Below are positions 1-20,680 of a stretch of 42,390 nucleotides of DNA, piece by piece (position 1 is the first letter of the stretch; each line of letters opens with the position of its first letter). Below the pieces are notes generated by a model, which saw only the letters and a program-made list of their open reading frames with translations, searched no databases and had not been told where the DNA came from. The DNA comes from Octopus sinensis (Eukaryota), in assembly GCF_006345805.1 (NCBI RefSeq), contig NW_021835118.1, positions 1-42,390 of the forward strand. The letters run 5' to 3'. Both the position numbers and the translations under genes were made by a program.

Positions 1-7
1 AACAGGA

Positions 8-82
8 ATCTTACTGAAGAGCCTACCTGAGTAAATAAATATTATTTTTATTGCTGAAAAAGGCGAAACTGCAGTCTAAGAT
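8..82 (+). ncRNA. Type I hammerhead ribozyme, family A, copy 1
   Basis: ATCTTA-CTGAAGA-GCCT..36 nt..AGGC-GAAA-CTGCAG-TC-TAAGAT. Stem I is 6 bp, the core is a canonical CUGANGA/GAAA, stem II is 4 bp, stem III is palindromic, and the cleavage triplet is GUC. Confidence 0.88.
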
Positions 83-407
83 GAACCGAGATAGTAAAAG
101 TTTTTATTTTCATTTCACTAATTTATCAAGCTTTGTGTATCTAGTACATACTTCGCCTTTAATGTACTTATATGAATAATATATGGCCTGTGCTAGAAAC
201 ACCAGCGATAATAATTAATTTTATTTTATCGCATTTTGAATTTGTTTACATATTTCTCGATAAATTTTGAGCGGTTAGACTATATACCAGAAATCCCTTG
301 TTGTCGGTACGTTCTGCGTCATGCGCAGTGAGCTGATTAGTTAGAAAGAGCAAATTAGTAGACGCACACTGTGTCGTCTATCGTGGTGCGATTTCAAAAT
401 AACAGGA

Positions 408-482
408 ATCTTACTGAAGAGCCTACCTGAGTAAATAAATATTATTTTTATTGATGAAAAAGGCGAAACTGCAGTCTAAGAT
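408..482 (+). ncRNA. Type I hammerhead ribozyme, family A, copy 2
   Basis: Same motif exactly 400 bp downstream of copy 1. Confidence 0.88.
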
Positions 483-662
483 GAACCGAGTTAGTAAAAG
501 TTTGATTTTCATTTCACTAAATTTATCAAGCTTCTGTGTATCTAGTACATACTTCGCCTTTAATGTACTTATATTGAATAAATATATGGCCTGTGCTAGA
601 ACACCAGCGATAATAATTAATTTTATTTTATCGCATTTTGAATTTGTTTATATATAATGTTA

Positions 663-1699: not shown

Positions 1700-3917
1700 A
1701 ACCAACGGACATAAACATGAAACACAAACACTTCATGTCCATAATACAAGCCATATGTGACAAATATGTCCCAATGTGCAGGCCAGCACACACAAGAACA
1801 AAAACAGGATCCCTAGAAAAAGGAGGATTCTTATGAGACGACGGACAAGGATTGCAAACCGCCTTAGCAAGCACACCAAAAGTGGTGAGAAGTCTCGGCT
1901 CGAAAGAATGCTAATGGAAACTGAGAAAATTCTACATCAGTCCCATGAAAGGAGAGAGCAGATAAAGAAGCTTGGTATAGAAAATATAAAATCAAACCCT
2001 AAAGCTTTCTTTAAGTTTGCCAAAGAGACAGCCACAGTGCACCAGAGAATAGGACCTCTCTTCCAAAAAGATGGCTCTCTCACAGGAAATCCCACGAGGA
2101 TAAGTGAAATACTGAACGAACAGTTCCAAAGTGTGTTCACTACACCTCTAGGACACAGGCAAGTAAACAACCCAGAAGAATCTTTGCCACTTTACCATCG
2201 GCCAAAGAGACAAAATTGAGTACATCAACATCGAAGAAGATGATATCACACTAGCCATTGATGAGATTGACACAAACTCAGCTGCTGGACCTGATGGATT
2301 CCCAGCGATCCTTCTCAAATCGTGCAAACGAGCCCTTGCAAAACCGCTACAGCTTCTTTTTCAGAGCTTTCTTGCAAGTTAAGCTCCCAGTCAAACTGAA
2401 AGAGGGGGTAATATGCCCTATCATAAGGGAAGTAGCAGAGCAGATGCTAAAAATTATAGGCCTATCTCTCTGACCTCACACATCAGCAAAGTCATGGAAC
2501 GAATAGTCCGTAAGAAACTAATCATGTTCCTTGAATAAAAGACTTACTGTCTGACACCCAGCATGGATTTCGACCAGGTAGAGGCTGCCTAACACAGCTC
2601 CTGCAACACTATGACTGGGTGTTGAAACAGCTACTAAATGGCTCAAATGTGGATGTTGAATATATCTCGACTTTGCAAAAGCCTTTGATAAAGTCGACCA
2701 TGGTATGATCTGTCACAACTGCGTGGTCTCGGCATAGGCGGGAAACTTGGAGAGTGGCTGCACAACTTCCTAAAAGACAGAAAACAGGCAGTTGTGAGCA
2801 ATGGAGCCACCTCCAGGAAACGCAAATAACAAGCGGTGTCCCACAGGGCACTGTCTTGGGGCCACTGATGTTCATAGTGGCCCTTTCAGACATGCCTTCA
2901 GTTGCTACGATGACCACCCTTGCTAGCTATGCAGATGACACAAAAGTCTCCCACGCAATACAAAACCCTGAAATATTGCGCATCTGCAACATGAGCTGGA
3001 CACAATATACAGGTGGGGCTGAGGACAACAACATGCAGTTTAATGCAGGTAAGTTCAGGCCCTGCGCTACTGGCACACAAAGGTAAATGACGTGAGACTG
3101 GATACACTGGCCCAGGAAGAATTGCAATCCCTGAGTCAAAATCAGTGCGTGACCTGGGCATTGACATGAGCAATGATGCATCTTTCCAAATGCATATTGC
3201 TAATCTGGTGATAAAATGCAGACGGCTAGCTACTGGATGGATTCTCCGAACTTTCAGAACAAGAGAGAAGGAGACACTGATGGTCCTATGGAAAACATTT
3301 GTCCTCAGCCGCTTGGACTACTGCTCCCAACTTTGGTCACCACACATATAAAACAAACAGCAGAACTCGAAGCAACTCAGAGAAGCTACACAAAAGAAAA
3401 TCGTCTCAATGCAAAATGTCAGCTACTGGAAAGACTGAAGGTATTAAACCTCTCTCTCCGGAGCGGAGGCGGGAGAGATATGCAGTGATATACATCTGGA
3501 AAATCCTGGAGGGTCTTGTCCCAAACTTTGGCATTCAAAGTTACTCCAACCGCAGAACGGGGCGCCGCTGCGTGGTGCCAAGGATTCCAACATCACCATC
3601 AAAATACAGGTCCAGATACTGCAACAGCTTGGGTTTCAGAGGACCACAGCTCTTTAACATCCTCCCTAAATGCCTGAGAGACTTACATGGTGTGGATGTG
3701 TTCTTTTAAAACTAAACTGGATCTCTTCTTGTTGGGAGTCCAGATGAACCTACCTCACGACAGGAGACACGGATGCGGGCAGCAGCATCGACTCCCTTGT
3801 TGATCAAGTGCCACGTATCAGAGGTGGATTCACAAACTAGTGTAGCTCATTAAGCGGTGGTGCCCCAGCATGGCCGCGGCCTTCGGGCTAAAACATTTTT
3901 ATGGATTTAAGGATTTA
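1700..3917 (+). mobile_element. CR1-clade LINE, 5'-truncated and frameshifted (RT and C-terminal part of ORF2 plus 3' UTR)
   Basis: Motifs across frames: IKSNPKAFF, DFAKAFDKVDHG, SGVPQGTVLGPLMF, YADDTK, RDLG, RLDYCSQLWSP, ERRRERY. The 3' end GGTGCCCCAGCATGGCC is shared with the other copies. Confidence 0.9.
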
Positions 3918-4220
3918 TACATATATATATACATATATATATATACATATATATATACACATATATATATACATATATATATACATATATATATATACAT
4001 ATATATATACATATATATATACATATATATATACATATATATATACACATATATATATACATATATATATACACATATATATATACATATATATATATAT
4101 ACATATATACATATACATATATACATATACATATATACATATGCATATATACATATACATATATATATACATATATATATATACATATATATACATATAT
4201 ATATATATATACATATATAC
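3918..4220. repeat. (TA)n/(TACATA)n microsatellite
   Basis: Direct inspection. Confidence 0.95.
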
Positions 4221-4252
4221 TTTATTTTAAGCAGCAGAAAATTCAACAAAAT

Positions 4253-4290
4253 CTGTTACTCTGAGTTTCTCGTTGCCGTTCATCAGACAG
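4253..4290 (-). ncRNA. Hammerhead family B, copy in the inverted left arm
   Basis: Reverse complement reads CTGT-CTGATGA-A-CG-GCAA-CG-A-GAAA-CTCAGAG-TA-ACAG, with G-C where the right arm has G-U. Confidence 0.75.
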
Positions 4291-5507
4291 TTTTTGCTAG
4301 AATGGAACTGATATATCAATTCAATCTATACTCTTACAAACGCAACACTTTTAAAAAGAAATGGACTTGTTTGATTGGCCCTTTAGAAAAAAACGGTCAA
4401 TCTTCTTCGAGCGATAAACAAAAAGGTCAAAAATATATGTATATATATAGAAAAAACTTATAAATTATAAAATCGAGGAAAAACCTATTGACGTTAATGA
4501 AGACAGTGAAAATTAATGCATAGAAATTAAACCTGTTATAAATACTGCAATACATATTTATATTAAAATCTACATATTATATATATCAACATACACAAAA
4601 GGATGCGCGTAAACGCCATACATACATATACAGACGTATGAATATAAATCTAAATATACACATAAAAGCATGTGTACATATATTCACCGCAAACCGTCTC
4701 GCACGCAAGCTAAAATTCATCTATGTAGCAATTCTCATATACTGAGCAAGGAGGGGGAACGAAAGAAAGGAAAGAGAGAAAAAGGAACGAAGGAGGGGTG
4801 GGAAAAAACGAAATAAGAAGAAAATTATGTATACAAGCAGTGTTACGATGTTATTGGCATCTATAGAGAACCAGTATACATAACAAGTTGAATGGATACA
4901 TATACATACCGTCGTGTATATGTGTGCTTAAGCACAAACATACTTTCACTTACACATACACAGATACCATGCTTACAAATACATATGCTTTGCTATACAC
5001 ATACTTATATAAACATTCTAATTTTGACAACCTTGCTTTTTTTAAAAAACATTGCTTTTAAAAATGGGTGCATTAATAAAAATATATACGAAAGACATAT
5101 AAAATAAAATATAACATCCTATTTTGGGTCATTTATAATAATCAAGGTAATATAAATAATCAAGGTATCCTATGCAATACAATAACATGAAAACAAAGTT
5201 TGTAGGTTTTTCCTAATAATATGGTAGAAACATAAGACTTTGCTATACGGATTAAGATCCGCATAGCTTGGAAACAAAATCAAAATCCATCGTAGCGCTC
5301 AAGAGTCAAAAAAAAAAAAAAATCAAAAATCAAAATACAAAATATATACTCTTTCCATATGGTATATTTATATTCGACATTTTAAATTTAGCCGCGTGCC
5401 TACATAAGTTCATTAACTCACTTCTTTGATTCAAAGAATTATTGTCTTTGAATAAGATGTACATTTTTTCTAATAGACAAAGTCTGCACTTGAAATTATT
5501 TTTGTAA

Positions 5508-6114
5508 GGAATTTTTGAGATTAGTCTCTAAGCATTTTAAGCAGGGTCATAAATTCTACAGAATATTTAATAGAAGAACCCTGAAGGTTAGCTATTCTTG
5601 TTGCAGAAATTTCGCCTCTTACATTAGCCAACATAATAGGAAGCTAATTGAGATTAGACATGGTGCCGAGCCCATTAAGAAATGTAATTTCAAAACGAAG
5701 CTCCTGTCCGTTAGAGGGGAAATGTCTAGTGAAAGGAGTAGTTTATAGAGCCAAGGTGCAAGTGGAAGGCTCATCGGAATACAAGACATACACAGGGGCT
5801 TCAGAAAATTCATTTAAAACAAGATTTTATTCTCATAAAAATTCATTTAAATACCCAGCCTAGCAAAATATGTCTGGGAACTAAAAGAAAAGGAAGCCAC
5901 ACCTTTCAACGTGACATGGAGCATTCTGGACAGGGCGGCACAATACAGGCATGGAGCTTACAAAAATAATTTCAAGTGCAGACTTTGTCTATTAGAAAAA
6001 ATGTACATCTTATTCAAAGACAATAATTCTTTGAATCAAAGAAGTGAGTTAATGAACTTATGTAGGCACGCGGCTAAATTTAAAATGTCGAATATAAATA
6101 TACCATATGGATAG
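5508..6114 (+). pseudogene. Penelope-like polyprotein C-terminus: end of RT thumb, Cys linker and GIY-YIG endonuclease (frameshifted); possibly Naiad-type
   Basis: IFNRRTLKVSYSC, CPLEGKCL, VVY..YTG..FKTRFYSHKNSF, WSIL, CRLCLLEK, LNQRSEL..CRH. The clade assignment is from recalled motifs only. Confidence 0.85.
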
Positions 6115-7169
6115 AGTATATATTTTGTATTTTTAATTTTTGATTTTGATTTTGACTTTTGAGCGCTACGATGGATTTTGATTTTGTTTCCAAGCAATGC
6201 GGATCTTAATCCGTATAGCAAAGTCTTATGTTTCTACATATATATTAGGAAAAACCTACAAACTTTGTTTTCATGTTATTGTATTGCATAGGATTACCTT
6301 GATTATTTATATTACCTTGATTATTTATAAATGACCCAAAATAGGATTTATATTTATTTTATATGTCTTTCGTATATTTTTATTAATGCACCCATTTTAA
6401 AAGCAATGTTTTTTAAAAAAAGCAATGTTGTCAAAATTAGAATGTTTATATAAGTATGTGTATAGCAAAGCATATGTATTTGTAAGCATGCGTATCTGTG
6501 TATGTGTAAGTGAAAGTATGTTTGTGCTTAAGCACACATATACACGACGGTATGTATATGTATCCATTCAAACTTGTGTATGTATACTGGTCTCTATAGA
6601 TGCCAATAACATCGTTACACTGCTTGTATACATAATTTTTTTCTTATTTCGTTTTTTTCCCCACCCCTCCTTCGTTCCTTTTTCTCTCTTTCCCTTTCTT
6701 TCGTTCCCCCTCCTTGCTCAGTATATGAGAATTGCTACATAGATGAATTTAGCTTGCGTGCGAGACGGTTTGCGTGAATATATGTACACATGCTTTTATG
6801 TGTTATTTAGATTTATATTCATACGTCTTATCTGTGTATGTATGTATGGCGTTTACGCGCATCCTTTTGTGTATGTTGATATATATTGTAGATTTTAATA
6901 TAAATATGTATTGCAGTATTTATAACAGGTTAATTTCTATGCATTAATTTGCACTGTCTTCATTAACGTCAATAGGTTTTTTCCTCGGATTTTATAATTT
7001 TTATAAGTTTTTTATATATATATACATATATTTTTGACCTTTTTGTTTATCGCTCGAAGATTGACCGTTTTTTTCTAAAGGGCAATCAAACAAGTCCATT
7101 TCTTTTTAAAGGTGTAGCGTTTGTAAGAGTATAGATTGAATTGATATATCAGTTCCATTCTAGCAAAAA

Positions 7170-7207
7170 CTGTCTGATGAACGGCAATGAGAAACTCAGA
7201 GTAACAG
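7170..7207 (+). ncRNA. Minimal type I hammerhead ribozyme, family B, in the Penelope pLTR
   Basis: CTGT-CTGATGA-A-CG-GCAA-TG-A-GAAA-CTCAGAG-TA-ACAG. GNRA-capped short stem II with an A.A at its base, near-palindromic stem III, GUA site. Confidence 0.75.
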
Positions 7208-7310
7208 ATTTTGTTGAATTTTCTGCTGCTTAAAATAAAGCATATTACTCTACACTGGTATTTGCGTACTCTTTTTTCCACCTTGTTTCACATTTATGTG
7301 TTTACTCCGG

Positions 7311-7375
7311 TATATACATATATATATATATATACATATATATATACATATGTATATATACATATATATATATAC

Positions 7376-8379: not shown

Positions 8380-8425
<46 letters not shown>
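7311..8425. repeat. Long (TA)n-type microsatellite
   Basis: Direct inspection. Confidence 0.95.
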
Positions 8426-8429
<4 letters not shown>

Positions 8430-11400
8430 AATGCCTCACACTAGGAGGGACAAAGTCATTACTACCAAAAATTATACTAATCATACCAAATAGTTTTGCA
8501 TTTTTCAAAGCAAGACATTTAAAAATGAATTATGTTCTGTATCACCGTGATTTCACATACAACTTGCGTCTAATGATCGTCAGCAGAACTGATTCTGAAT
8601 ACATCATAAATAAACTACCAACCTTACGTAGCGGAGACGAACAGACAACTGCTCACTCCGGCCAAGCACATGGAATGTTATAAATCATATATCCGGTAAA
8701 GGCGGGCTTTTACGAACTGCATGTGGGTAATGAAAAGTATTCGGAATAAGTTTAACAATTAAGGATAATCTCTTAATAAGGGATCTCTAACAAGAAATTA
8801 TCGGGTAGCTAGCGTGAAAAACCTCATAAAGAAAAGAATCCGAAAATAATTTTTTTCTTTTGAACAAATTAATTATATCTATATTGTATAGAGGGCATTA
8901 TTACACATAAATGCCTCACACTAGGAGGGACAAAGTCATTACTACCAAAAATTATACTAATCATACCCAAATGCAGTTTTTCAAAGCAAGACATTTAAAA
9001 ATGAATTATGTTCTGTATCACCGTGATTTCACATACAACTTGCGTCTAATGATCGTCAGCAGAGAACTGATTCTGAATACATCATAAATAAACTACCAAC
9101 CTTACGTAGCGGAGACGAACAGACAACTGCTCACTCCGGCCAAGCACATGGAATGTTTATAAATCATATATCCGGTAAATGGCGGGCTTTTACGAACTGC
9201 ATGTCGGGTAATGAAAAGTATTTCGGAATAAGTTTAACAATTAAGGATAATCTCTTAATAAGGGATCTTAACAAGAAATTATCGGGTAGCTAGCGTGAAA
9301 ACCTCATAAAAGAAAAGAATCCGAAAATATTTTTTTCTTTTGAACAAATTAATTATATCTATATTGTATAGAGGGCATTATTACACATAAATGCCTCACA
9401 CTAGGAGGGACAAAGTCATTACTACCAAAAATTATACTAATCATACCCAAATGCAGTTTTTCAAAGCAAGACATTTAAAAATGAATTATGTCTGTATCAC
9501 CGTGATTTCACATACAACTTGCGTCTAATGATCGTCAGCAGAACTGATTCTGAATACATCATAAATAAACTACCAACCTTACGTAGCGGAGACGAACAGA
9601 CAACTGCTCACTCCGGCCAAGCACATGGAATGTTTATAAATCATATATCCGGTAAATGGCGGGCTTTTTACGAACTGCATGTCGGGTAATGAAAAGTATT
9701 TCGGAATAAGTTTAACAATTAAGGATAATCTCTTAATAAGGGATCTTAACAAGAAATTATCGGGTAGCTAGCGTGAAAACCTCATAAAAGAAAAGAATCC
9801 GAAAATAATTTTTTCTTTTGAACAAATTAATTATATCTATATTGTATAGAGGGCATTATTACACATAAATGCCTCACACTAGGAGGGACAAAGTCATTAC
9901 TACCAAAAATTATACTAATCATACCCAAATGCAGTGTTTCAAAGCAAGACATTTAAAAATGAATTATGTTCTGTATCACCGTGATTTCACATACACTTGC
10001 GTCTAATGATCGTCAGCAGAACTGATTCTGAATACATCATAAATAAACTACCAACCTTACGTAGCGGAGACGAACAGACAACTGCTCACTCCGGCCAAGC
10101 ACATGGAATGTTTAAAATCATATATCCGGTAAATGGCGGGCTTTTTACGAACTGCATGTCGGGTAATGAAAAGTATTTCGGAATAAGTTTAACAATTAAG
10201 GATAATCTCTAATAAGGGATCTTAACAAGAAATTATCGGGTAGCTAGCGTGAAAACCTCATAAAAGAAAAGAATCCGAAAATATTTTTTTCTTTTGAACA
10301 AATTAATTATATCTATATTGTATAGAGGGCATTATTACACATAAATGCCTCACACTAGGAGGGACAAAGTCATTACTACCAAAAATTATACTAATCATAC
10401 CCAAATGCAGTTTTTCAAAGCAAGACATTTAAAAATGAATTATGTTCTGTATCACACCGTGATTTCACATACAACTTGCGTCTAATGATCGTCAGCAGAA
10501 CTGATTCTGAATACATCATAAAAAACTACCAACCTTACGTAGCGGAGACGAACAGACAACTGCTCACTCCGGCCAAGCACATGGAATGTTATAAATCATA
10601 TATCCGGTAAATGGCGGGCTTTTTACGAACTGCATGTCGGGTGTAATGAAAAGTATTTCGGAATAAGTTTAACAATTAAGGATAATCTCTTAATAAGGGA
10701 TCTTAACAAGAAATTATCGGGTAGCTAGCGTGAAAACCTCATAAAAGAAAAGAATCCGAAAATAATTTTTTCTTTTGAACAAATTAATTATATCTATATT
10801 GTATAGAGGGCATTATTACACATAAATGCCTCACACTAGGAGGGACAAAGTCATTACTACCAAAAATTATACTAATCATACCCAAATGCAGTTTTTCAAA
10901 GCAAGACATTTAAAAATGAATTATGTTCTGTATCACCGTGATTTCACATACAACTTGCGTCTAATGATCGTCAGCAGAACTGATTCTGAATACATCATAA
11001 ATAAACTACCAACCTTACGTAGCGGAGACGAACAGACAACTGCTCACTCCGGCCAAGCACATGGAATGTTTAAAAATCATATATCCGGTAAATGGCGGGC
11101 TTTTTACGAACTGCATGTCGGGTAATGAAAAGTATTTCGGAATAAGTTTAACAATTAAGGATAATCTCTTAATAAGGGATCTTAACAAGAAATTATCGGG
11201 TAGCTAGCGTGAAAACCTCATAAAAGAAAAGAATCCGAAAATAATTTTTTTCTTTTGAACAAATTAATTATATCTATATTGTATAGAGGGCATTATTACA
11301 CATAAATGCCTCACACTAGGAGGGACAAAGTCATTACTACCAAAAATTATACTAATCATACCCAAATGCAGTTTTTCAAAGCAAGACATTTAAAAATGAA

Positions 11401-12068
11401 TTATGTTCTGTATCACCGTGATTTCACATACAACTTGCGTCTAATGATCGTCAGCAGAACTGATTCTGAATACATCATAAATAAACTACCAACCTTACGT
11501 AGCGGAGACGAACAGACAACTGCTCACCGGCCAAGCACATGGAATGTTTAAAATCATATATCCGGTAAATGGCGGGTTTTTACGAACTGCATGTCGGGTA
11601 ATGAAAAGTATTTCGGAATAAGTTTAACAATTAAGGATAATCTCTTAATAAGGGATCTTAACAAGAAATTATCGGGTAGCTAGCGTGAAAACCTCATAAA
11701 AGAAAAGAATCCGAAAATAATTTTTTTCTTTTGAACAAATTAATTATATCTATATTGTATAGAGGGCATTATTACACATAAATGCCTCACACTAGGAGGG
11801 ACAAAGTCATTACTACCAAAAATTATACTAATCATACCCAAATGCAGTTTTTCAAAGCAAGACATTAAAAATGAATTATGTTCTGTATCACCGTGATTCA
11901 CATACCACTTGCGCAATGATCGTCAGCAGAACTGATTCTGAATACATCATAAATAAACTACCAACCTTACGTAGCGGAGACGAACAGACAACTGCTCACT
12001 CCGGCCAAGCACATGGAATGTTTATAAATCATATATCCGGTAAATGGCGGGTTTTTACGAACTGCATG
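8425..12068 (-). repeat. About 480-bp tandem array (about 7.6 units), one hammerhead per unit on the minus strand; retrozyme-like
   Basis: CATAAATGCCTCACACTAGG at about 8426, 8906, 9386, 9864, 10340, 10821, 11301 and 11777. Confidence 0.95.
8534..8589 (-). ncRNA. Type I hammerhead ribozyme, family C (first copy; repeated at about 9010, 9490, 9968, 10444, 10925, 11405, 11880 on - and 12163, 12637 on +, some with indels)
   Basis: Sense reads GTTCTG-CTGACGA-T-CAT-TA-GAC-GCAA-GTT-GT-ATG-T-GAAA-TCACGGTGA-TA-CAGAAC. Stem I is 6 bp, the core is intact, and stem III is self-complementary. Confidence 0.85.
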
Positions 12069-12950
12069 ATTTATAAACATTCCATGGCTTGGCCGGAGGA
12101 GCAGTTGTCTGTTCGTCTCCGCTACGTAAGGTTGGTAGTTATTTATGATGTATTCAGAATCAGTTCTGCTGACGATCATTAGACGCAAGTTGTATGTGAT
12201 CACGGTGATACAGAACATAATCATTTTTAATGTCTTGCTTTGAAAAACTGCATTTGGGTATGATTAGTATAATTTTTGTGGTAGTAATGACTTTGTCCCT
12301 CCTAGTGTGAGGCATTTATGTGTAATAATGCCTCTATACAATATAGATATAATTAATTTGTTCAAAAGAAAAAAATTATTTTCGGATTCTTTTCTTTTAT
12401 GAGGTTTTCACGCTAGCTACCCGATAATTTCTTGTTAAGATCCCTTATTAAGAGATTATCCTTAATTGTTAAACTTATTCGAAATACTTTTCATTACCCG
12501 ACATGCAGTTCGTAAAAAGCCCGCCATTTACCGGATATATGATTTATAACATTCCATGTGCTTGGCCGGAGTGAGCAGTTGTCTGTCGTCTCCGCTACGT
12601 AAGGTTGGTAGTTTATTTATGATGTATTCAGAATCAGTTCTGCTGACGATCATTAGACGCAAGTTGTATGTGAAATCACGGTGATACAGAAACATATTCA
12701 TTTTTAAATGTCTTGCTTGGAAAAACTGCATTTGGGTATGATTAGTATAATTTTTGGTAGTAATGACTTTGTCCCTCCTAGTGTGAGGCATTTATGTGTA
12801 ATAATGCCCTCTATACAATATAGATATAATTAATTTGTTCAAAAGAAAAAAATTATTTTCGGATTCTTTTCTTTTATGAGGTTTTCACGCTAGCTACCCG
12901 ATAATTTCTTGTTAAGATCCCTTATTAAGAGATTATCCTTAATTGTTAAA
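12066..12950 (+). repeat. Inverted continuation of the 480-bp array (about 1.8 units)
   Basis: Reverse complement of the same unit; the strand switches at an ATG microhomology at 12066-12068. Confidence 0.93.
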
Positions 12951-12969
12951 TATATACATATATATATAT

Positions 12970-15900
12970 TTTTGATTTTGATTTTTCCAGTTTCAGCTAA
13001 TGAGCTGTGGCCATGCTGGGGCACCGCCATTTGGTTTGCTACACGATTTTACCTCACGGATGCTTTTTAGCAAACGCCATCTGATGCATGAGAGAGTTCG
13101 ATGCAGCTGCCCTCATCTGCACCTCCTGCCGTGAAGTTGGTTCATCCGGGACACCTGACAGGAAGAGGTCCAGTCCTACTTTAAAGACAACCGCATCTAC
13201 ACCATGCAGGTCCCTCAGGTTCTTTGGGAGGATATTGAAGAGCTGTGGGCCTCTGAAGCCCAGGCAATCACAATATCTTGTCCTACATCTTGATGGCAAA
13301 TTTGGAGTCCTTGGTACTACGCAGTGGCGCCCGGTTCTGGCATTTGTGTGACTCTCCATGCCAAAGTTTGGGACAAGTCCTCCAGTATCTTCCAGATATA
13401 TTTATGGCATATCATTCTCGCTACGCTCCAGGGAATAGAGCTTAATCTCTTGAGTCTTCCCAGTAGCTCATATGCTGCACAGAGGCTATCTACTTCGTGT
13501 AGCTTCGTTGGATCGCCTCAAGTTCTGTGATCATCTTGACACTGGATGGTGACCATAGCTGAGAGCAATAGTCAAAGTGGCTTAGGACAAGTGTCTTCCA
13601 GGGGACCATCATGGTTTCTTGTTCTCTTGTTCTAAAGGTTCTGAGAATCCATCCAGCCATCCGTCTACATTTCATTGCCAGTTTAGCAACATGTACACGA
13701 AAGGTCGCGTCATCACTCATGTGAATACCCAGGTCACGCACTGATTGTGCCTCTAGGATCGCAATCCCTCCGGGTCCAGTGTATTCATTGGGTATTGCAT
13801 TCAGTTTTGCATGCTGATAGTATAAAACTTGAAACTTTTCAGTATTGAACTGCATGCTATTCTTTTCAGCCCACTTGTATATTTCGTCCAGCTCATATTG
13901 CAGGTGCTTAGTGTCTTCAGGGTTCTGTATTGCCTGTGAGACTTTTGTATCATCTGCATAACTTGTGATCGTGGCTCTCTGCGTGGCTGAGGGCATGTCT
14001 GAGAGGGCCATTATGAACAGTAGTGGTCCCAAAACAGTGCCCTGCGGAACACCGCTCACTATTTGCGTGTTAATGGAAGTGGCCCCATTGGCAGTTACCA
14101 CCTGACTTCTATTCTTCAGAAAGTCATGAAGCCATTCTCCTAATTTTCCAACTATGCCAAGATCACGCAGTTTGTGACATATCATTCCATGATCGACTTT
14201 ATCAAAGGCCTTTGCAAAGTCGAGATATATCACTACCACATTTGAGTGGTTGAGCAGTTGTTTCAGCACCCAGTCATAGTGTTGTAGGAGCTGAGTTAAG
14301 CAGCTTCTTCCTGGTCGGAAACCATGTTGGGTGTCAGGCAGCAAGTCATTTTCTTCAAGGAAGGTGATTAGTTTCCTTCTGACTATTCGTTCCATGACCT
14401 TGCTGATGTGTGAGGTTAGGGAGATAGGTCTGTAGTTCTTGGCTTCCGCTCTGCTACCTCCTTTATGAATGGGGCATATTTTACCTTCCTTCAGTTTTCT
14501 TGGAAGTTTGCCAGCTGCAAGGAAGCTCTGAAAGAGGAACTGCAGTGGTCTTGCTAGGACTCTCTTACTTACTTTTAGGAGGATTCCCGGGAATCCATCG
14601 GGGCCAGTAGCTGAGTCTGTTTTCATTTCATCGTCTTCCTTTATATCGATGTAATCTATCGTCGCCGCCTCTGATTTTATATCTGCAGTGGTAAAGATGT
14701 CCGTTGGATTGCTGATTTGGAGATGCCCCAGGAGTGGAGTGAAAACACTCTTGAATTGCTCATTCAGTATTTCACTTACCCTCATTGGTTTTCCTGTAAG
14801 TGTGCCATCCTTTTCAAGGAGTGGCCCTATTCTACAGTGCGCCGTAGCTGTTTCTTTGGCATACCTGTAGAAAGCTTTGGGGTTAGATTTTATGTTGTCT
14901 ATAGCCCAGGCTTCTTTGTCTGCTCTTTCCTTCTCATGGGAGAGTTGCAGACATTTTTCGATTTCCAACAGTTTTATCTTCAGGCGGGACTTTTCACTGC
15001 TTTCAATCTGTTTGTTTAGGCGATTTGAAAATTTTGTACGCCGTCTCATTAAAATTTTCCTCTCTCTGGGGATTTTGTTCTTGTGTACAGTGGCCTTTCT
15101 CTCTGGGACACATTTGTAGCATATGGCTTGCATTACAGACATGAATTGTTGAAGTTTCATGTCGATGTCCGGTGAGGAGTGACATTCAGGCCAGTTTTGT
15201 TTGAGGATCTCTTTCTCAATTTGTTTCCAGTTTGCCTTATTGAAGTTCAAGCTGGAAAGATTCTGAGAGTTTCTTGTAGGCTGCATGTCCATTGTTTCCT
15301 TTGGCCCGTACATGGTCAGCTCTACCATGTTCTGATCCTAGAGTGGTGTTGGCGTCACTTTCACATTATGGATGAGATCCATGTCATTTGTGAAGCAGAG
15401 AGCCAGTGTGTTACCTGCCCTGGTTGGTTGGAGTATTACTTGCTCCATGTACAGGGTGTTGATGACGTTCAGGAGGGACCTCGCCTGTCCCCGTTCACCT
15501 CGTGTCATTCCTGGGAGAGAAAGGCCCTCGGGCCATCTGACATTGGGCAGGTTGAAGTCTCCCATGAGAAGTACACTTATGTGCTGTTCTAGTGTGATTA
15601 GAACTTCTTCTATTTTTATAAGGCAGTCTTCAAACTTGCCCATATGGCTCGGGGAATCTGGAGGGCGATATGTAGCACACACAACTACACCAAGTTGCCT
15701 TACATGTACAATTAGTGTGTCACACACCGAGTTTGAGTATGACAAAAGGAACTGGGGTGTGAGGTCCTCACGGATGTACATAGCAACTCCTCCATGACTC
15801 CTTTATTTTCTGTCGGTCCGTAGTACAACATACTGTGGTATGTGTACTTCCGCATCCGCTATGTCCGGTTTCAGGTGTGTTTCCGTAAGTGCTATGCATA

Positions 15901-16175
15901 AGGCTTGATTGCATGCAACAAAGTCTCTCAAGAACGGGACTTTTGTCCTGTTACTGCGTGTTAGTAGTCCTCTGATGTTCAGTAGGAGCATCGAGGTGAG
16001 GTGTATGCTGTTGCCGGTGGTGTCCACCTTGGGTCTATTTGCTGAGGTGGTCTTGTGAACTGTGGGTAGTTCCATCTGCGAGCTTGAGTTTGATGGAGCC
16101 AGGTTAGCTGCTGTACAATCTTTTGTGCCATGCACAAAAAAGATTCTTGTTCAGCAGCTGCCCTTTCAACAACAC
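12970..16175 (-). mobile_element. CR1-clade LINE with nearly complete ORF2 and 3' UTR ending in an (AAAATC)-like tail
   Basis: APE endonuclease motifs ([28 protein letters not shown]) plus a 612-aa RT ORF (NYRPISLTS, QHGFRPGRSC, YLDFAKAFD, GVPQG, YADDTK). Confidence 0.93.
13054..16135 (-). pseudogene. LINE ORF2 (APE endonuclease + reverse transcriptase) broken into four ORF pieces
   Basis: ORFs 15803-16135, 15338-15781, 13490-15328 and 13054-13359 are consecutive parts of one protein. The breaks may be real or sequencing indels. Confidence 0.88.
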
Positions 16176-16176
16176 G

Positions 16177-16421
<245 letters not shown>

Positions 16422-16425
16422 AAAT

Positions 16426-17143
16426 ACCGCCGGCAACAACGTACACCACACCTCGATGCTCCTACTGAACATCAGAGGACTGCAAACACTCAGTAACAGG
16501 ACAAAAATCCCGTTCCTGAGACACTTTGTTGCATGCAATCAAGCCTTATGCATAGCACTTACGGAAACACACAGAGCTCGAGGCGATCCAACGTAGCTAC
16601 ACAAAGAAGATAGCCTCTATGCAGAATGTAAGCTACTGGGAAAGACTCAAGAGATTAAAACTATATTCCCTGGAGCGTAGGCAGGAAAGATATGCCATAA
16701 TATACATCTGGAAGATCCTGGAGGGACGTGTCCTGAACTTTGGCATCGAGAGTTACGCAAATGCCAGAACTGGGCGCCACTGCGTGGTGCCTAGGACTCC
16801 AAACTTGCCATCAAGATGTAGGACAAGATTCTGTGATAGCCTGGGCTTCCGAGGCCCACAGCTCTTCAATATCCTCCCGAAGAACCTGAGAGACCTGCAT
16901 GGGGTGGATGCAGATGTCTTTAAAATGAAGCTGGATCTCTTCCTGTCAGGTGTCCCGGATGGACCAACTTCACGGCAGGAGGGGCAGATGAGGGCAGCTG
17001 CATCGAACTCTCTCATGCAGCAAATGGCAGTTGCTAGAAAGCTTTCGTGAAGTGAAACCAAGTAGCAACACCAAATGGCGGTGCCCCAGCATGGCCACAG
17101 CTCATAAGCTGAAACTAGAATCAATCAATCAATCAATCAATCA
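16426..17143 (+). mobile_element. Internally deleted CR1 copy (endonuclease N-terminus fused to the 3' end), (AATC)n tail
   Basis: 16426-16572 matches the [12 protein letters not shown] region and is joined directly to the ELEAIQRSYTK region and 3' UTR. Confidence 0.88.
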
Positions 17144-18345: not shown

Positions 18346-18451
18346 GGCAGTTGCTAAAAAGCTTTCGTGAAGTAAAACCAAGTAGCAACACCAAATGGCG
18401 GTGCCCCAGCATGGCCACAGCTCATCAGCTGAAACTAGAATCAATCAATCA
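18344..18451 (+). mobile_element. CR1 3'-terminal fragment (about 110 bp)
   Basis: Near-identical to 17025-17135, ends in (AATC)n, and is flanked by (TA)n. Confidence 0.88.
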
Positions 18452-18504
18452 TATGTATATATTTATATATGTATATATATTATATATATATATGTATATA
18501 TATA

Positions 18505-18578
<74 letters not shown>

Positions 18579-18655
18579 TATATGTATATGTATGTATAAT
18601 ATATATATGCATATATATATATATGCATATATATATATATGCATATATATATATA

Positions 18656-18699
<44 letters not shown>

Positions 18700-18729
18700 T
18701 ATATATATATATATGCATATATATATAAG

Positions 18730-18762
<33 letters not shown>

Positions 18763-18976
18763 GTATGCATATATATATGTATGTATATATATATGTATGT
18801 ATATATATATATATGGTATATATATATATGTATATATATATGTATGTATATATATATGTATGTATATATATATGTATGTATATATATATGTATGTATATA
18901 TATATGTATATATATGTATATATATATATATATATAATATATATATGTATATATATATATATATATCTATGTATGT

Positions 18977-19024
<48 letters not shown>

Positions 19025-19080
19025 ATGCATATATATATATATGTATATATATATTATATGTATATATATATATATATATA
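18452..19080. repeat. (TA)n/(TATG)n microsatellite
   Basis: Direct inspection. Confidence 0.95.
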
Positions 19081-20276
19081 AGTTTAACAATTAGGGATAA
19101 TCTCTTAATAAGGGATCTTAACAAGAAATTATCGGGTAGCTAGCGTGAAAACCTCATAAAAGAAAAGAATTCGAAAAGAATTTTTTTCTTTTGAACAAAT
19201 TAATTATATCTATATTGTATAGAGGGCATTATTACACATAAATGCCTCACACTAGGAGGGACAAAGTCATTACTACCAAAATTATACTAATCATACCCAA
19301 ATGCAGTTTTTCAAAGCAAGACATTTAAAAAATGAATTTAGTTCTGTATCACCGTGATTTCACATTCAACTTACGTCTAATGATCATCAGCAGAAACTGA
19401 TTCTGAACACATCATAAATAAACTACCAACCTTACGTAGCGAAGACGAACAGACAACTGCTCACTCCGGCCAAGCACATGGAATGTTTATAAATCATATA
19501 TCCGGTAAATGGCGGGCTTTTTACGAACTGCATTTCGGAATAAGTTTAACAATTAAGGATAATCTCTTAATAAGGGATCTTAACAAGAAATTATCGGGTA
19601 GCTAGCGTGAAAACCTCATAAAAGAAAAGAATTCGAAAATAATTTTTTTCTTTTGAACAAATTAATTATATCTATATTGTATAGAGGGCATTATTACACA
19701 TAAATGCCTCACACTAGGAGGGATTAGTATAATTTTGGTAGTAATGACTTTGTCCCTCCTAGTGTGAGGCATTTATGTGTAATAATGCCCTCTATACAAT
19801 ATAGATATAATTAATTTGTTCAAAAGAAAAAAATTATTTTCGAATTCTTTTCTTTTATGAGGTTTTCACGCTAGCTACCCGATAATTTCTTGTTAAGATC
19901 CCTTATTAAGAGATTATCCTTAATTGTTAAACTTATTCCGAAATACTTTTCATTACCCGACATGCAGGTCGTAAAAAGCCCGCCATTTACAGGATATATG
20001 ATTTATAAACATTCCATGTGCTTGGCCGGAGTGAGCAGTTGTCTGTTCGTCTTCGCTACGTAAGGTTGGTAGTTTATTTATGATATGTTCAGAATCAGTT
20101 CTGCTGATGATCATTAGACGTAAGTTGAATGTGAAATCACGGTGATACAGAACTAAATTCATTTTTTAAATGTCTTGCTTTGAAAAACTGCATTTGGGTA
20201 TGATTAGTATAATTTTGGTAGTAATGACTTTGTCCCTCCTAGTGTGAGGCATTTATGTGTATAATGCCCTCTATAC

Positions 20277-20282
<6 letters not shown>
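19080..20282. repeat. Second insertion of the 480-bp family (variant subfamily), head-to-head inverted, with the switch at about 19722
   Basis: 19080-19723 has the same orientation as 8425-12068 and 19722-20282 is reversed. GA microhomology at the junction; diagnostic SNPs are shared by both arms. Confidence 0.92.
20098..20153 (+). ncRNA. Hammerhead family C variant (mirror copy at 19341-19397 on -)
   Basis: GTTCTG-CTGATGA-T-CATT-A-GAC-GTAA-GTT-G-AATG-T-GAAA-TCACGGTGA-TA-CAGAAC. Confidence 0.85.
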
Positions 20283-20314
<32 letters not shown>

Positions 20315-20346
20315 GTATAATATATATATATATGTATATATATATG

Positions 20347-20384
<38 letters not shown>

Positions 20385-20473
20385 TTATATATATGTATAT
20401 ATATGTATGTATATATATATATACATACATATATATATATATGTGTATATATATATATATATGTATATATATG

Positions 20474-20506
<33 letters not shown>

Positions 20507-20598
20507 GTATATATATATAATATGTATATATATATATATGTATATGTAATATATATATATATGTATATATGTATATATATGTATTATGTATATATATG

Positions 20599-20665
<67 letters not shown>

Positions 20666-20680
20666 ATATATATAAATATA
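20283..20680. repeat. (TA)n microsatellite
   Basis: Direct inspection. Confidence 0.95.

Follow-up and report, generated by a model that had tools for sequence, protein, structure and literature searches.

Non-LTR retrozymes of animals, as described in PMC7229834 and 10.64898/2026.07.22.740005, are low-GC tandem units that encode no protein and carry a single type I hammerhead ribozyme each; they are dispersed as dimers to multimers, are known from a mussel, and are linked to Penelope-like elements (PLEs). EN+ PLEs themselves, according to PMC8557442, PMC3846280, PMC11167929 and PMC4209133, occur as an inverted 5'-truncated copy with a tail at one end and as partial tandems, with a bias for (TA)n targets (the inverted, one-tailed copy in (TA)n being described in PMC8557442), two internal RT start sites and a palindromic helix III. 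According to PMC11167929, a PLE protein both cleaves and extends the two strands of its target, the tail is delimited by a pair of internal RT start sites, and the protein is predicted to act as a dimer. How the tandem and inverted structures of PLEs are formed is named as an open question in PMC8557442.

The 480-nt repeat considered here (unit period 478-480 nt, ~34% GC, no ORF; hundreds of copies, sited in TA microsatellites) resembles retrozymes and EN+ PLEs in the structural traits listed for each, and insertion 2, the copy under study, belongs to the non-LTR retrozymes, which are known as parasites of PLEs, albeit to a new family. The unit exceeds the retrozyme range of 150-450 bp given in PMC7229834, but lies within the 51-972 bp of 10.64898/2026.07.22.740005. 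The family differs from described retrozymes in a U.U at positions 10.1/11.1 of the ribozyme and in being inserted into (TA)n almost always head to head, with its ends at two distinct fixed positions, a mode for which no description in retrozymes was found. It differs from EN+ PLEs in having no ORF, a tail of 127 nt rather than 30-40 nt, arms of up to 14 units and no homologous PLE terminal repeat that could be found. The literature covered, which does not extend to many subscription papers, contains no description of inverted two-end retrozyme insertions, of a cephalopod retrozyme or of PLE twin priming; family lists in bioRxiv supplements could include the 480-nt element. The family is present in sequencing runs from six organisms, and the whole unit is covered, wrapping head to tail, in 4/4 runs, probably of RNA, from 4 studies.

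Structure of the insertion

The window, i.e. the whole stretch of 42,390 nt that was analysed, is an entire small unplaced contig of the 2.72 Gb genome, with uncorrected indels, an rDNA unit and long (TA)n tracts; its long GC-rich 18S and the genome size point to a host that is probably a cephalopod. As the first-pass annotation had proposed, a second insertion of the 480-nt family lies in this contig (19078-20282) inside (TA)n, with the target microsatellite at 18451-19077 on the left and at 20283-20680 on the right (no strand assigned), and consists of two head-to-head arms whose 5' ends (unit 86 and unit 54) are joined by a 2-nt microhomology, GA, at 19722-19723. Unit positions are counted from the first base 3' of the predicted cleavage site, with the 480-nt majority unit of array 1 as the reference. 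Arm A (19078-19723, minus strand) comprises unit 86-480 plus 1-269 (1.35 units, with a 19-nt deletion of unit positions 276-294 between 19533 and 19534), and its 3' end is the fixed site A (269), where the three bases ATA (19078-19080) are common to arm and flank. Arm B (19722-20282, plus strand) comprises unit 54-480 plus 1-136 (1.2 units) and has its 3' end at site B, with an ATATA overlap with the flank (20278-20282) and a T in place of G137.

Each arm, and thus each strand, carries one type I hammerhead. That of arm A (19334-19403, minus strand) has a 1-nt insertion in stem I, which is probably a long-read sequencing error; that of arm B (20092-20160, plus strand) was found through motif and structure, the Rfam gathering search having given no call for the hammerhead of insertion 2. 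Two consecutive hammerheads per strand, the criterion for an active copy in Li et al. (10.64898/2026.07.22.740005), are present in array 1 and in many other loci, but absent from insertion 2, so that the release of unit-length RNA is likely not possible. Insertion 2 is an ordinary copy and probably a dead one. Array 1 (8422-12950) belongs to another subfamily and contains 7.6 units in minus sense, ending at 114, and 1.8 units in plus sense, ending at 264, with an overlap of ATG between its arms (12066-12068). Its right end is therefore only 5 nt removed, in unit positions, from the left end of insertion 2 (264 versus 269), a proximity that had already been pointed out.

Pairing of two fixed ends

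In total 127 loci were mapped, of which 67 were chosen by unit similarity and 60 by exact end patterns, the latter being 40 from the first 100 of 215 A junctions and 20, with no exact A match nearby, from the first 100 of 283 B junctions. These 215 A and 283 B junctions are all exact junctions genome-wide, compared to 0 in reversed controls. Two head-to-head arms were found in 98 of the 127 loci (~77%), a single arm in 26 (where short second arms were perhaps missed) and a complex arrangement in 3, which agrees with the earlier suggestion that the inversion is a recurrent product of the integration mechanism.

When end points and inversion junctions were tabulated for the complete two-arm loci (n = 96), 95 combined an A end with a B-side end, with neither A + A nor B + B in any (0 each), so that the ends are never symmetric; one locus (L129) is unclear. 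More precisely, 89 loci pair A (260-271) with B (131-153) and 6 pair A with 105-126. The insertion hallmark of PLEs, an inverted 5'-truncated copy with a one-sided tail, is found in 95/96 complete inverted loci, and it is this strict one-of-each end rule that is the part of the 480-nt family worth following. The B-side ends of these loci lie near unit 136-142 or 109-126, opposite an A end near 269. Among loci not picked by their ends, A ends lie exactly at 269 in 55/61. Outer ends adjoin TA-alternating DNA in 217/225 cases. At L161:3828-3843, two insertions stand tail to tail with both A ends facing some 14 nt of TA between them.

At 78/104 B ends a target T takes the place of G137, as is expected if the target anneals at site B. 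The TA homology at site A is 3 nt, and no arm ends in the unit's longest run of alternating T and A (6 nt, 327-332). With the best TA match unused, the choice of start sites depends on some other factor, and microhomology adjusts the final few bases; the idea that priming uses microhomology to (TA)n thus holds for these last bases (3 nt at A), but not for the choice of site. A sister family (L246-L275, e.g. G000:C1:30128292-30133669) with a unit of 481 nt, 72% identical to the 480-nt unit, and at least 2,231 hammerhead motif matches, has its ends at the homologous places in 9/9 distinct complete inversions.

The hammerhead ribozyme

The ribozyme is of type I, with GUUCUG/CAGAAC as stem I, the core CUGA-N-GA plus GAAA, and a stem II with a GNRA loop. 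In arm B the core is CUGAUGA (20104-20110) plus GAAA, the loop is GUAA, stem III is palindromic, and cleavage is predicted after 20147, at an AUA triplet. As an odd palindrome, stem III gives no fold by itself (0.0), compared to a computed -11.9 kcal/mol as a dimer, and a palindromic helix III with dimer action is typical of PLE and metazoan hammerheads according to PMC4209133 and PMC7229834. The ribozyme would cleave mainly as a dimer. Upon cofolding, the array-1 sequence forms a double hammerhead in the minimum free energy (MFE) structure, whereas the insertion-2 sequence does not. What speaks against activity is the U.U in place of the canonical G10.1-C11.1 pair (the sister family has U.U, A-U or G-U here), the AUA triplet, and the predicted burial of the core in the monomer MFE structure.

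The three substitutions that had been named in the hammerhead, C441T (N7, window position 20108), C454T (GCAA to GUAA, 20121) and T461A (20128), are present in both arms, and the loop indeed stays GNRA; two further changes in the ribozyme of insertion 2 are A7T and T8A (20154-20155). The three named substitutions had been described as structure-neutral or stabilising, of which the latter is incorrect. The hammerhead fold amounts to -9.0 kcal/mol in array 1 and -10.3 kcal/mol in insertion 2, versus -10.6 and -14.3 kcal/mol, respectively, for a misfold that buries the core, and in the insertion-2 background the gap to this core-sequestering misfold widens from 1.2 kcal/mol with C at N7 to 4.0 kcal/mol with U.

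The substitutions are not private to the insertion either, but are subfamily markers (A461 in 90, U454 in 70 and U441 in 25 of 141 loci); position 441 can also be G, and position 454 also A, with the loop still GNRA in every case. In a midpoint-rooted tree of 100 locus units, U7, A8, U454 and A461 are found on the older, more diverged copies and the array 1 type on a derived branch. Two of the three named changes (U454 and A461) are thus probably ancestral, judging from the tree, and rather than insertion 2 gaining a stem II pair through U>A, as was first supposed, array 1 would have lost two pairs. T448A (20 loci) disrupts the extra stem II pair again.

That the RNA structure is under selection had been concluded from these three substitutions, an argument that does not stand as such. 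The chance that three changes miss the 11 core bases is P = 0.59, and that they miss core and stems P = 0.02, so that by themselves they are weak evidence, and as proof of selection they were rejected on the value for the core. The conclusion itself is supported by family-wide and sister-family data. Variants common to at least two loci affect 0/49 core and stem positions versus 7/20 free positions (Fisher 7e-5) and, outside the ribozyme, ~50/411 positions (p about 0.003; bases left uncalled make this number a little too high). Private variants fall on 4 stem versus 2 free positions (p = 0.011). Within the CpG at 441-442 the C is altered in 25 loci and the catalytic G8 in none. The core is invariant in the ~100-108 loci that cover it, although core conservation within the 480-nt family is not significant by itself (P = 0.21), and part of the conservation sample was chosen by similarity, which is a bias against divergent copies. 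L223 and L225 represent the same insertion and were counted once, so C434T was rejected as a shared variant.

The sister family has the same core, a shorter stem II that is still GUAA-capped, a changed centre base in stem III and two stem I pairs altered on both sides (i.e. compensatory), which is one event between two families and not a set of independent replicates. Two other hairpins are conserved with different sequence between the families.

Relation to Penelope-like elements

For comparison, the window also contains, outside insertion 2, a 5'-truncated, inverted PLE of the autonomous type in (TA)n (4220-7312; no strand assigned), which we take to be Neptune-like. It has a GIY-YIG C-terminus, an upstream Cys motif and its own hammerhead with a GCAA loop and an odd-palindromic stem III; 8,509 candidate copies were found, with frames of up to 766 aa. 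Its ORF was placed by Atlas with RT/GIY-YIG clusters and had no match in Pfam and PDB. The two ends of this PLE are 67 nt apart, and one of each is present in 7/7 insertions with both ends visible.

No homology of the 480-nt unit to an autonomous PLE terminal repeat was found in the two PLE families examined. The window PLE was rejected as the parent, there being no significant shared sequence and only one match (E = 0.5) that is not kept in the sister family. In a chimera at L217:1506-2475, within a single (TA)n tract and possibly due to a template switch, the retrozyme is fused near unit 46 to the C-terminus of a second PLE family, which is Asn-rich; L217 was rejected as a full-length parent, since 29/29 other copies of that PLE run into a different 3' region. 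In this second PLE family (L278:2300-2700, oriented locus), stem II of the hammerhead is AT-rich and very long and stem III is palindromic, and there are apparently two 3' ends ~70 nt apart.

Origin of the inverted arrangement

The explanation that fits best, to which a probability of roughly 0.7 can be given, is that insertion 2 is a retrozyme copy of which the arms end at two different fixed unit positions since the endonuclease/RT of a PLE cleaved both strands of (TA)n and started one cDNA from each end. Synthesis from one 3'-OH would begin at RNA site A (~269) and that from the other at site B (~136-142), at which ATATAGATATA is able to base-pair with the target. The two cDNAs would run 3' to 5' on the same or identical multimeric or circular RNA, across the cleavage site, and come to a halt, in short copies often at an identical base, upon which their 3' ends would be joined via 0-6 nt of microhomology. 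The stretch of 127 nt from B to A would then be the PLE 'tail' of the 480-nt family, and the ribozyme may be kept because copies must pass through RNA. In its favour are the A + B pairing of the ends, the like rule in the sister family and in the window PLE, the lengths of the arms, the closely spaced 5' ends of short insertions and the subfamily alleles shared by both arms. What speaks against this explanation is that no autonomous PLE with the 480-nt unit as its terminal repeat was found, L217 being a single case, and that junctions with both 5' ends at one site show no enrichment in long arrays.

Several properties of the arms bear on the template. Arms cross the cleavage site freely, and they mostly overlap by 0-6 nt or have short insertions instead. 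Whole-unit arm lengths, the signature of a circular template, are not in excess (A arms 5/72 versus 6.9 expected, B arms 4/56 versus 5.3), and 5' ends show at most a weak pile-up at the cleavage site (A 7 versus 5.0 expected, B 11 versus 5.4), with the 5'-end hazard about doubled across unit positions 1-72. In the arrays L045, L046, L060 and L063, units with different subfamily alleles form mosaics, which means either that no single monomer circle was the template or that conversion took place later.

It could be that PLE integration as such is obligately two-ended and asymmetric, with a dimer on one RNA of which one subunit always takes the distal site and the other the proximal one, often stopping together; we would put this at even odds. 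If true, such a rule would by itself account for the inversion into head-to-head arms, for palindromic junctions and for the tail at only one end of PLEs, with no need for antisense self-priming, and would constitute the insertion route of animal retrozymes, possibly with two polymerases rolling on one circle. The use of start sites in vitro showed no strand difference (PMC11167929), and published biochemistry therefore does not account for the strict A + B pairing. With its hundreds of insertions, a family as young as this one resolves start sites, stop sites and arm lengths to the nucleotide. Such data discriminate between the published self-priming and priming from two ends, and they lead to precise predictions for the in vitro PLE assay that already exists.

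The alternative that survives best, though still unlikely, is a fold-back, in which a single cDNA primed at A copies itself (or antisense RNA self-primes, as was proposed for PLEs in PMC3846280) and B is only the point of annealing to (TA)n. The replacement of G137 by the target T in 78/104 ends is as expected of such an annealing point, and both arms commonly share a haplotype, subfamily alleles agreeing between arms in 70/83 loci versus 16% of random pairs; the arms of L229, however, differ at four linked subfamily sites. Near-palindromic junctions likewise fit, occurring in about half of the short insertions: both 5' ends lie at most 20 nt apart in 25/48 end-picked, mostly short loci (one being L129; permutation mean 5.6, p < 1e-4), with no such enrichment in long similarity-picked arrays (6/48, p = 0.38). 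Yet a fold-back requires negative offsets, whereas the 23 same-unit junctions have 5 negative, 7 zero and 11 positive ones, i.e. 18/23 zero or positive, of which 7 are without a spacer for a hairpin loop. Moreover, the B arm is longer than the A arm in 27/48 and 9/48 loci of the two samples (36/96), which is impossible from an A cDNA. As the sole route, fold-back is already refuted; judged by how long the arms are and how the junctions are built, two cDNAs primed at the two ends of the target are more likely than self-priming by fold-back or chimeric reads.

Twin priming of the L1 type by a LINE, with both starts set by TA microhomology, is improbable. As described in PMC12016303, two cDNAs are primed by both target strands in L1 twin priming and joined 5' to 5' with a short microhomology, the same head-to-head geometry as in the 480-nt family, and LINE copies do share these TA tracts. 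An RT-encoding LINE family (RVT_1, E = 4e-32) is represented in (TA)n at 1761-3890, 12975-16180, 16430-17100 and 18346-18450, with one copy directly adjoining array 1. There is, however, neither poly(A) nor a LINE-like 3' end; both starts are internal and fixed, with the A arm passing the B primer without stopping and the arms overlapping extensively in sequence; and ~77% of loci are inverted, as compared to ~20% for L1. The best TA match is left unused, and PLE insertions obey the identical rule.

Still less probable is an ordinary satellite that spread by DNA-level recombination, with the hammerhead as a decaying relic. The weak monomer fold and the mosaic units in a few arrays (L045, L060, L063) would be in line with it, but the loci are dispersed with precise ends, and compensatory ribozyme changes and conserved hairpins elsewhere persist across 72% identity. 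The least probable reading, which attributes the inversions to fold-back chimeras among the long reads or to faulty assembly, has on its side the small, unplaced contig with its uncorrected indels and the junction of insertion 2 not being among the matches listed in the short-read contigs of four runs, but it predicts mirror-image arms and flanks, whereas 0/96 loci are symmetric and their ends heterotypic, most loci are on chromosome-scale contigs, and four other near-palindromic head-to-head joints (at about 102/97, 99/94, 97/102 and 96/92, the short sides measuring 21-26 nt) are present in two public runs, in contigs with a depth of 17-114.

Other repeats in the window

A third hammerhead repeat, with a 400-nt period and a sequence unrelated to the 480-nt unit, occupies window positions 1-660 and ends in (TA)n, with Rfam Hammerhead_1 matches at 8-82 and 408-482. 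The 28S gene holds a non-rRNA insert (~36100-37310) with two poly(T) runs and a 112-nt repeat, which ends just before TAGCCAAATGCC, presumably the R2 target site. Inside ITS1 of the rDNA unit, a 352-nt tandem repeat (2.6 copies) is found at 32213-33136.
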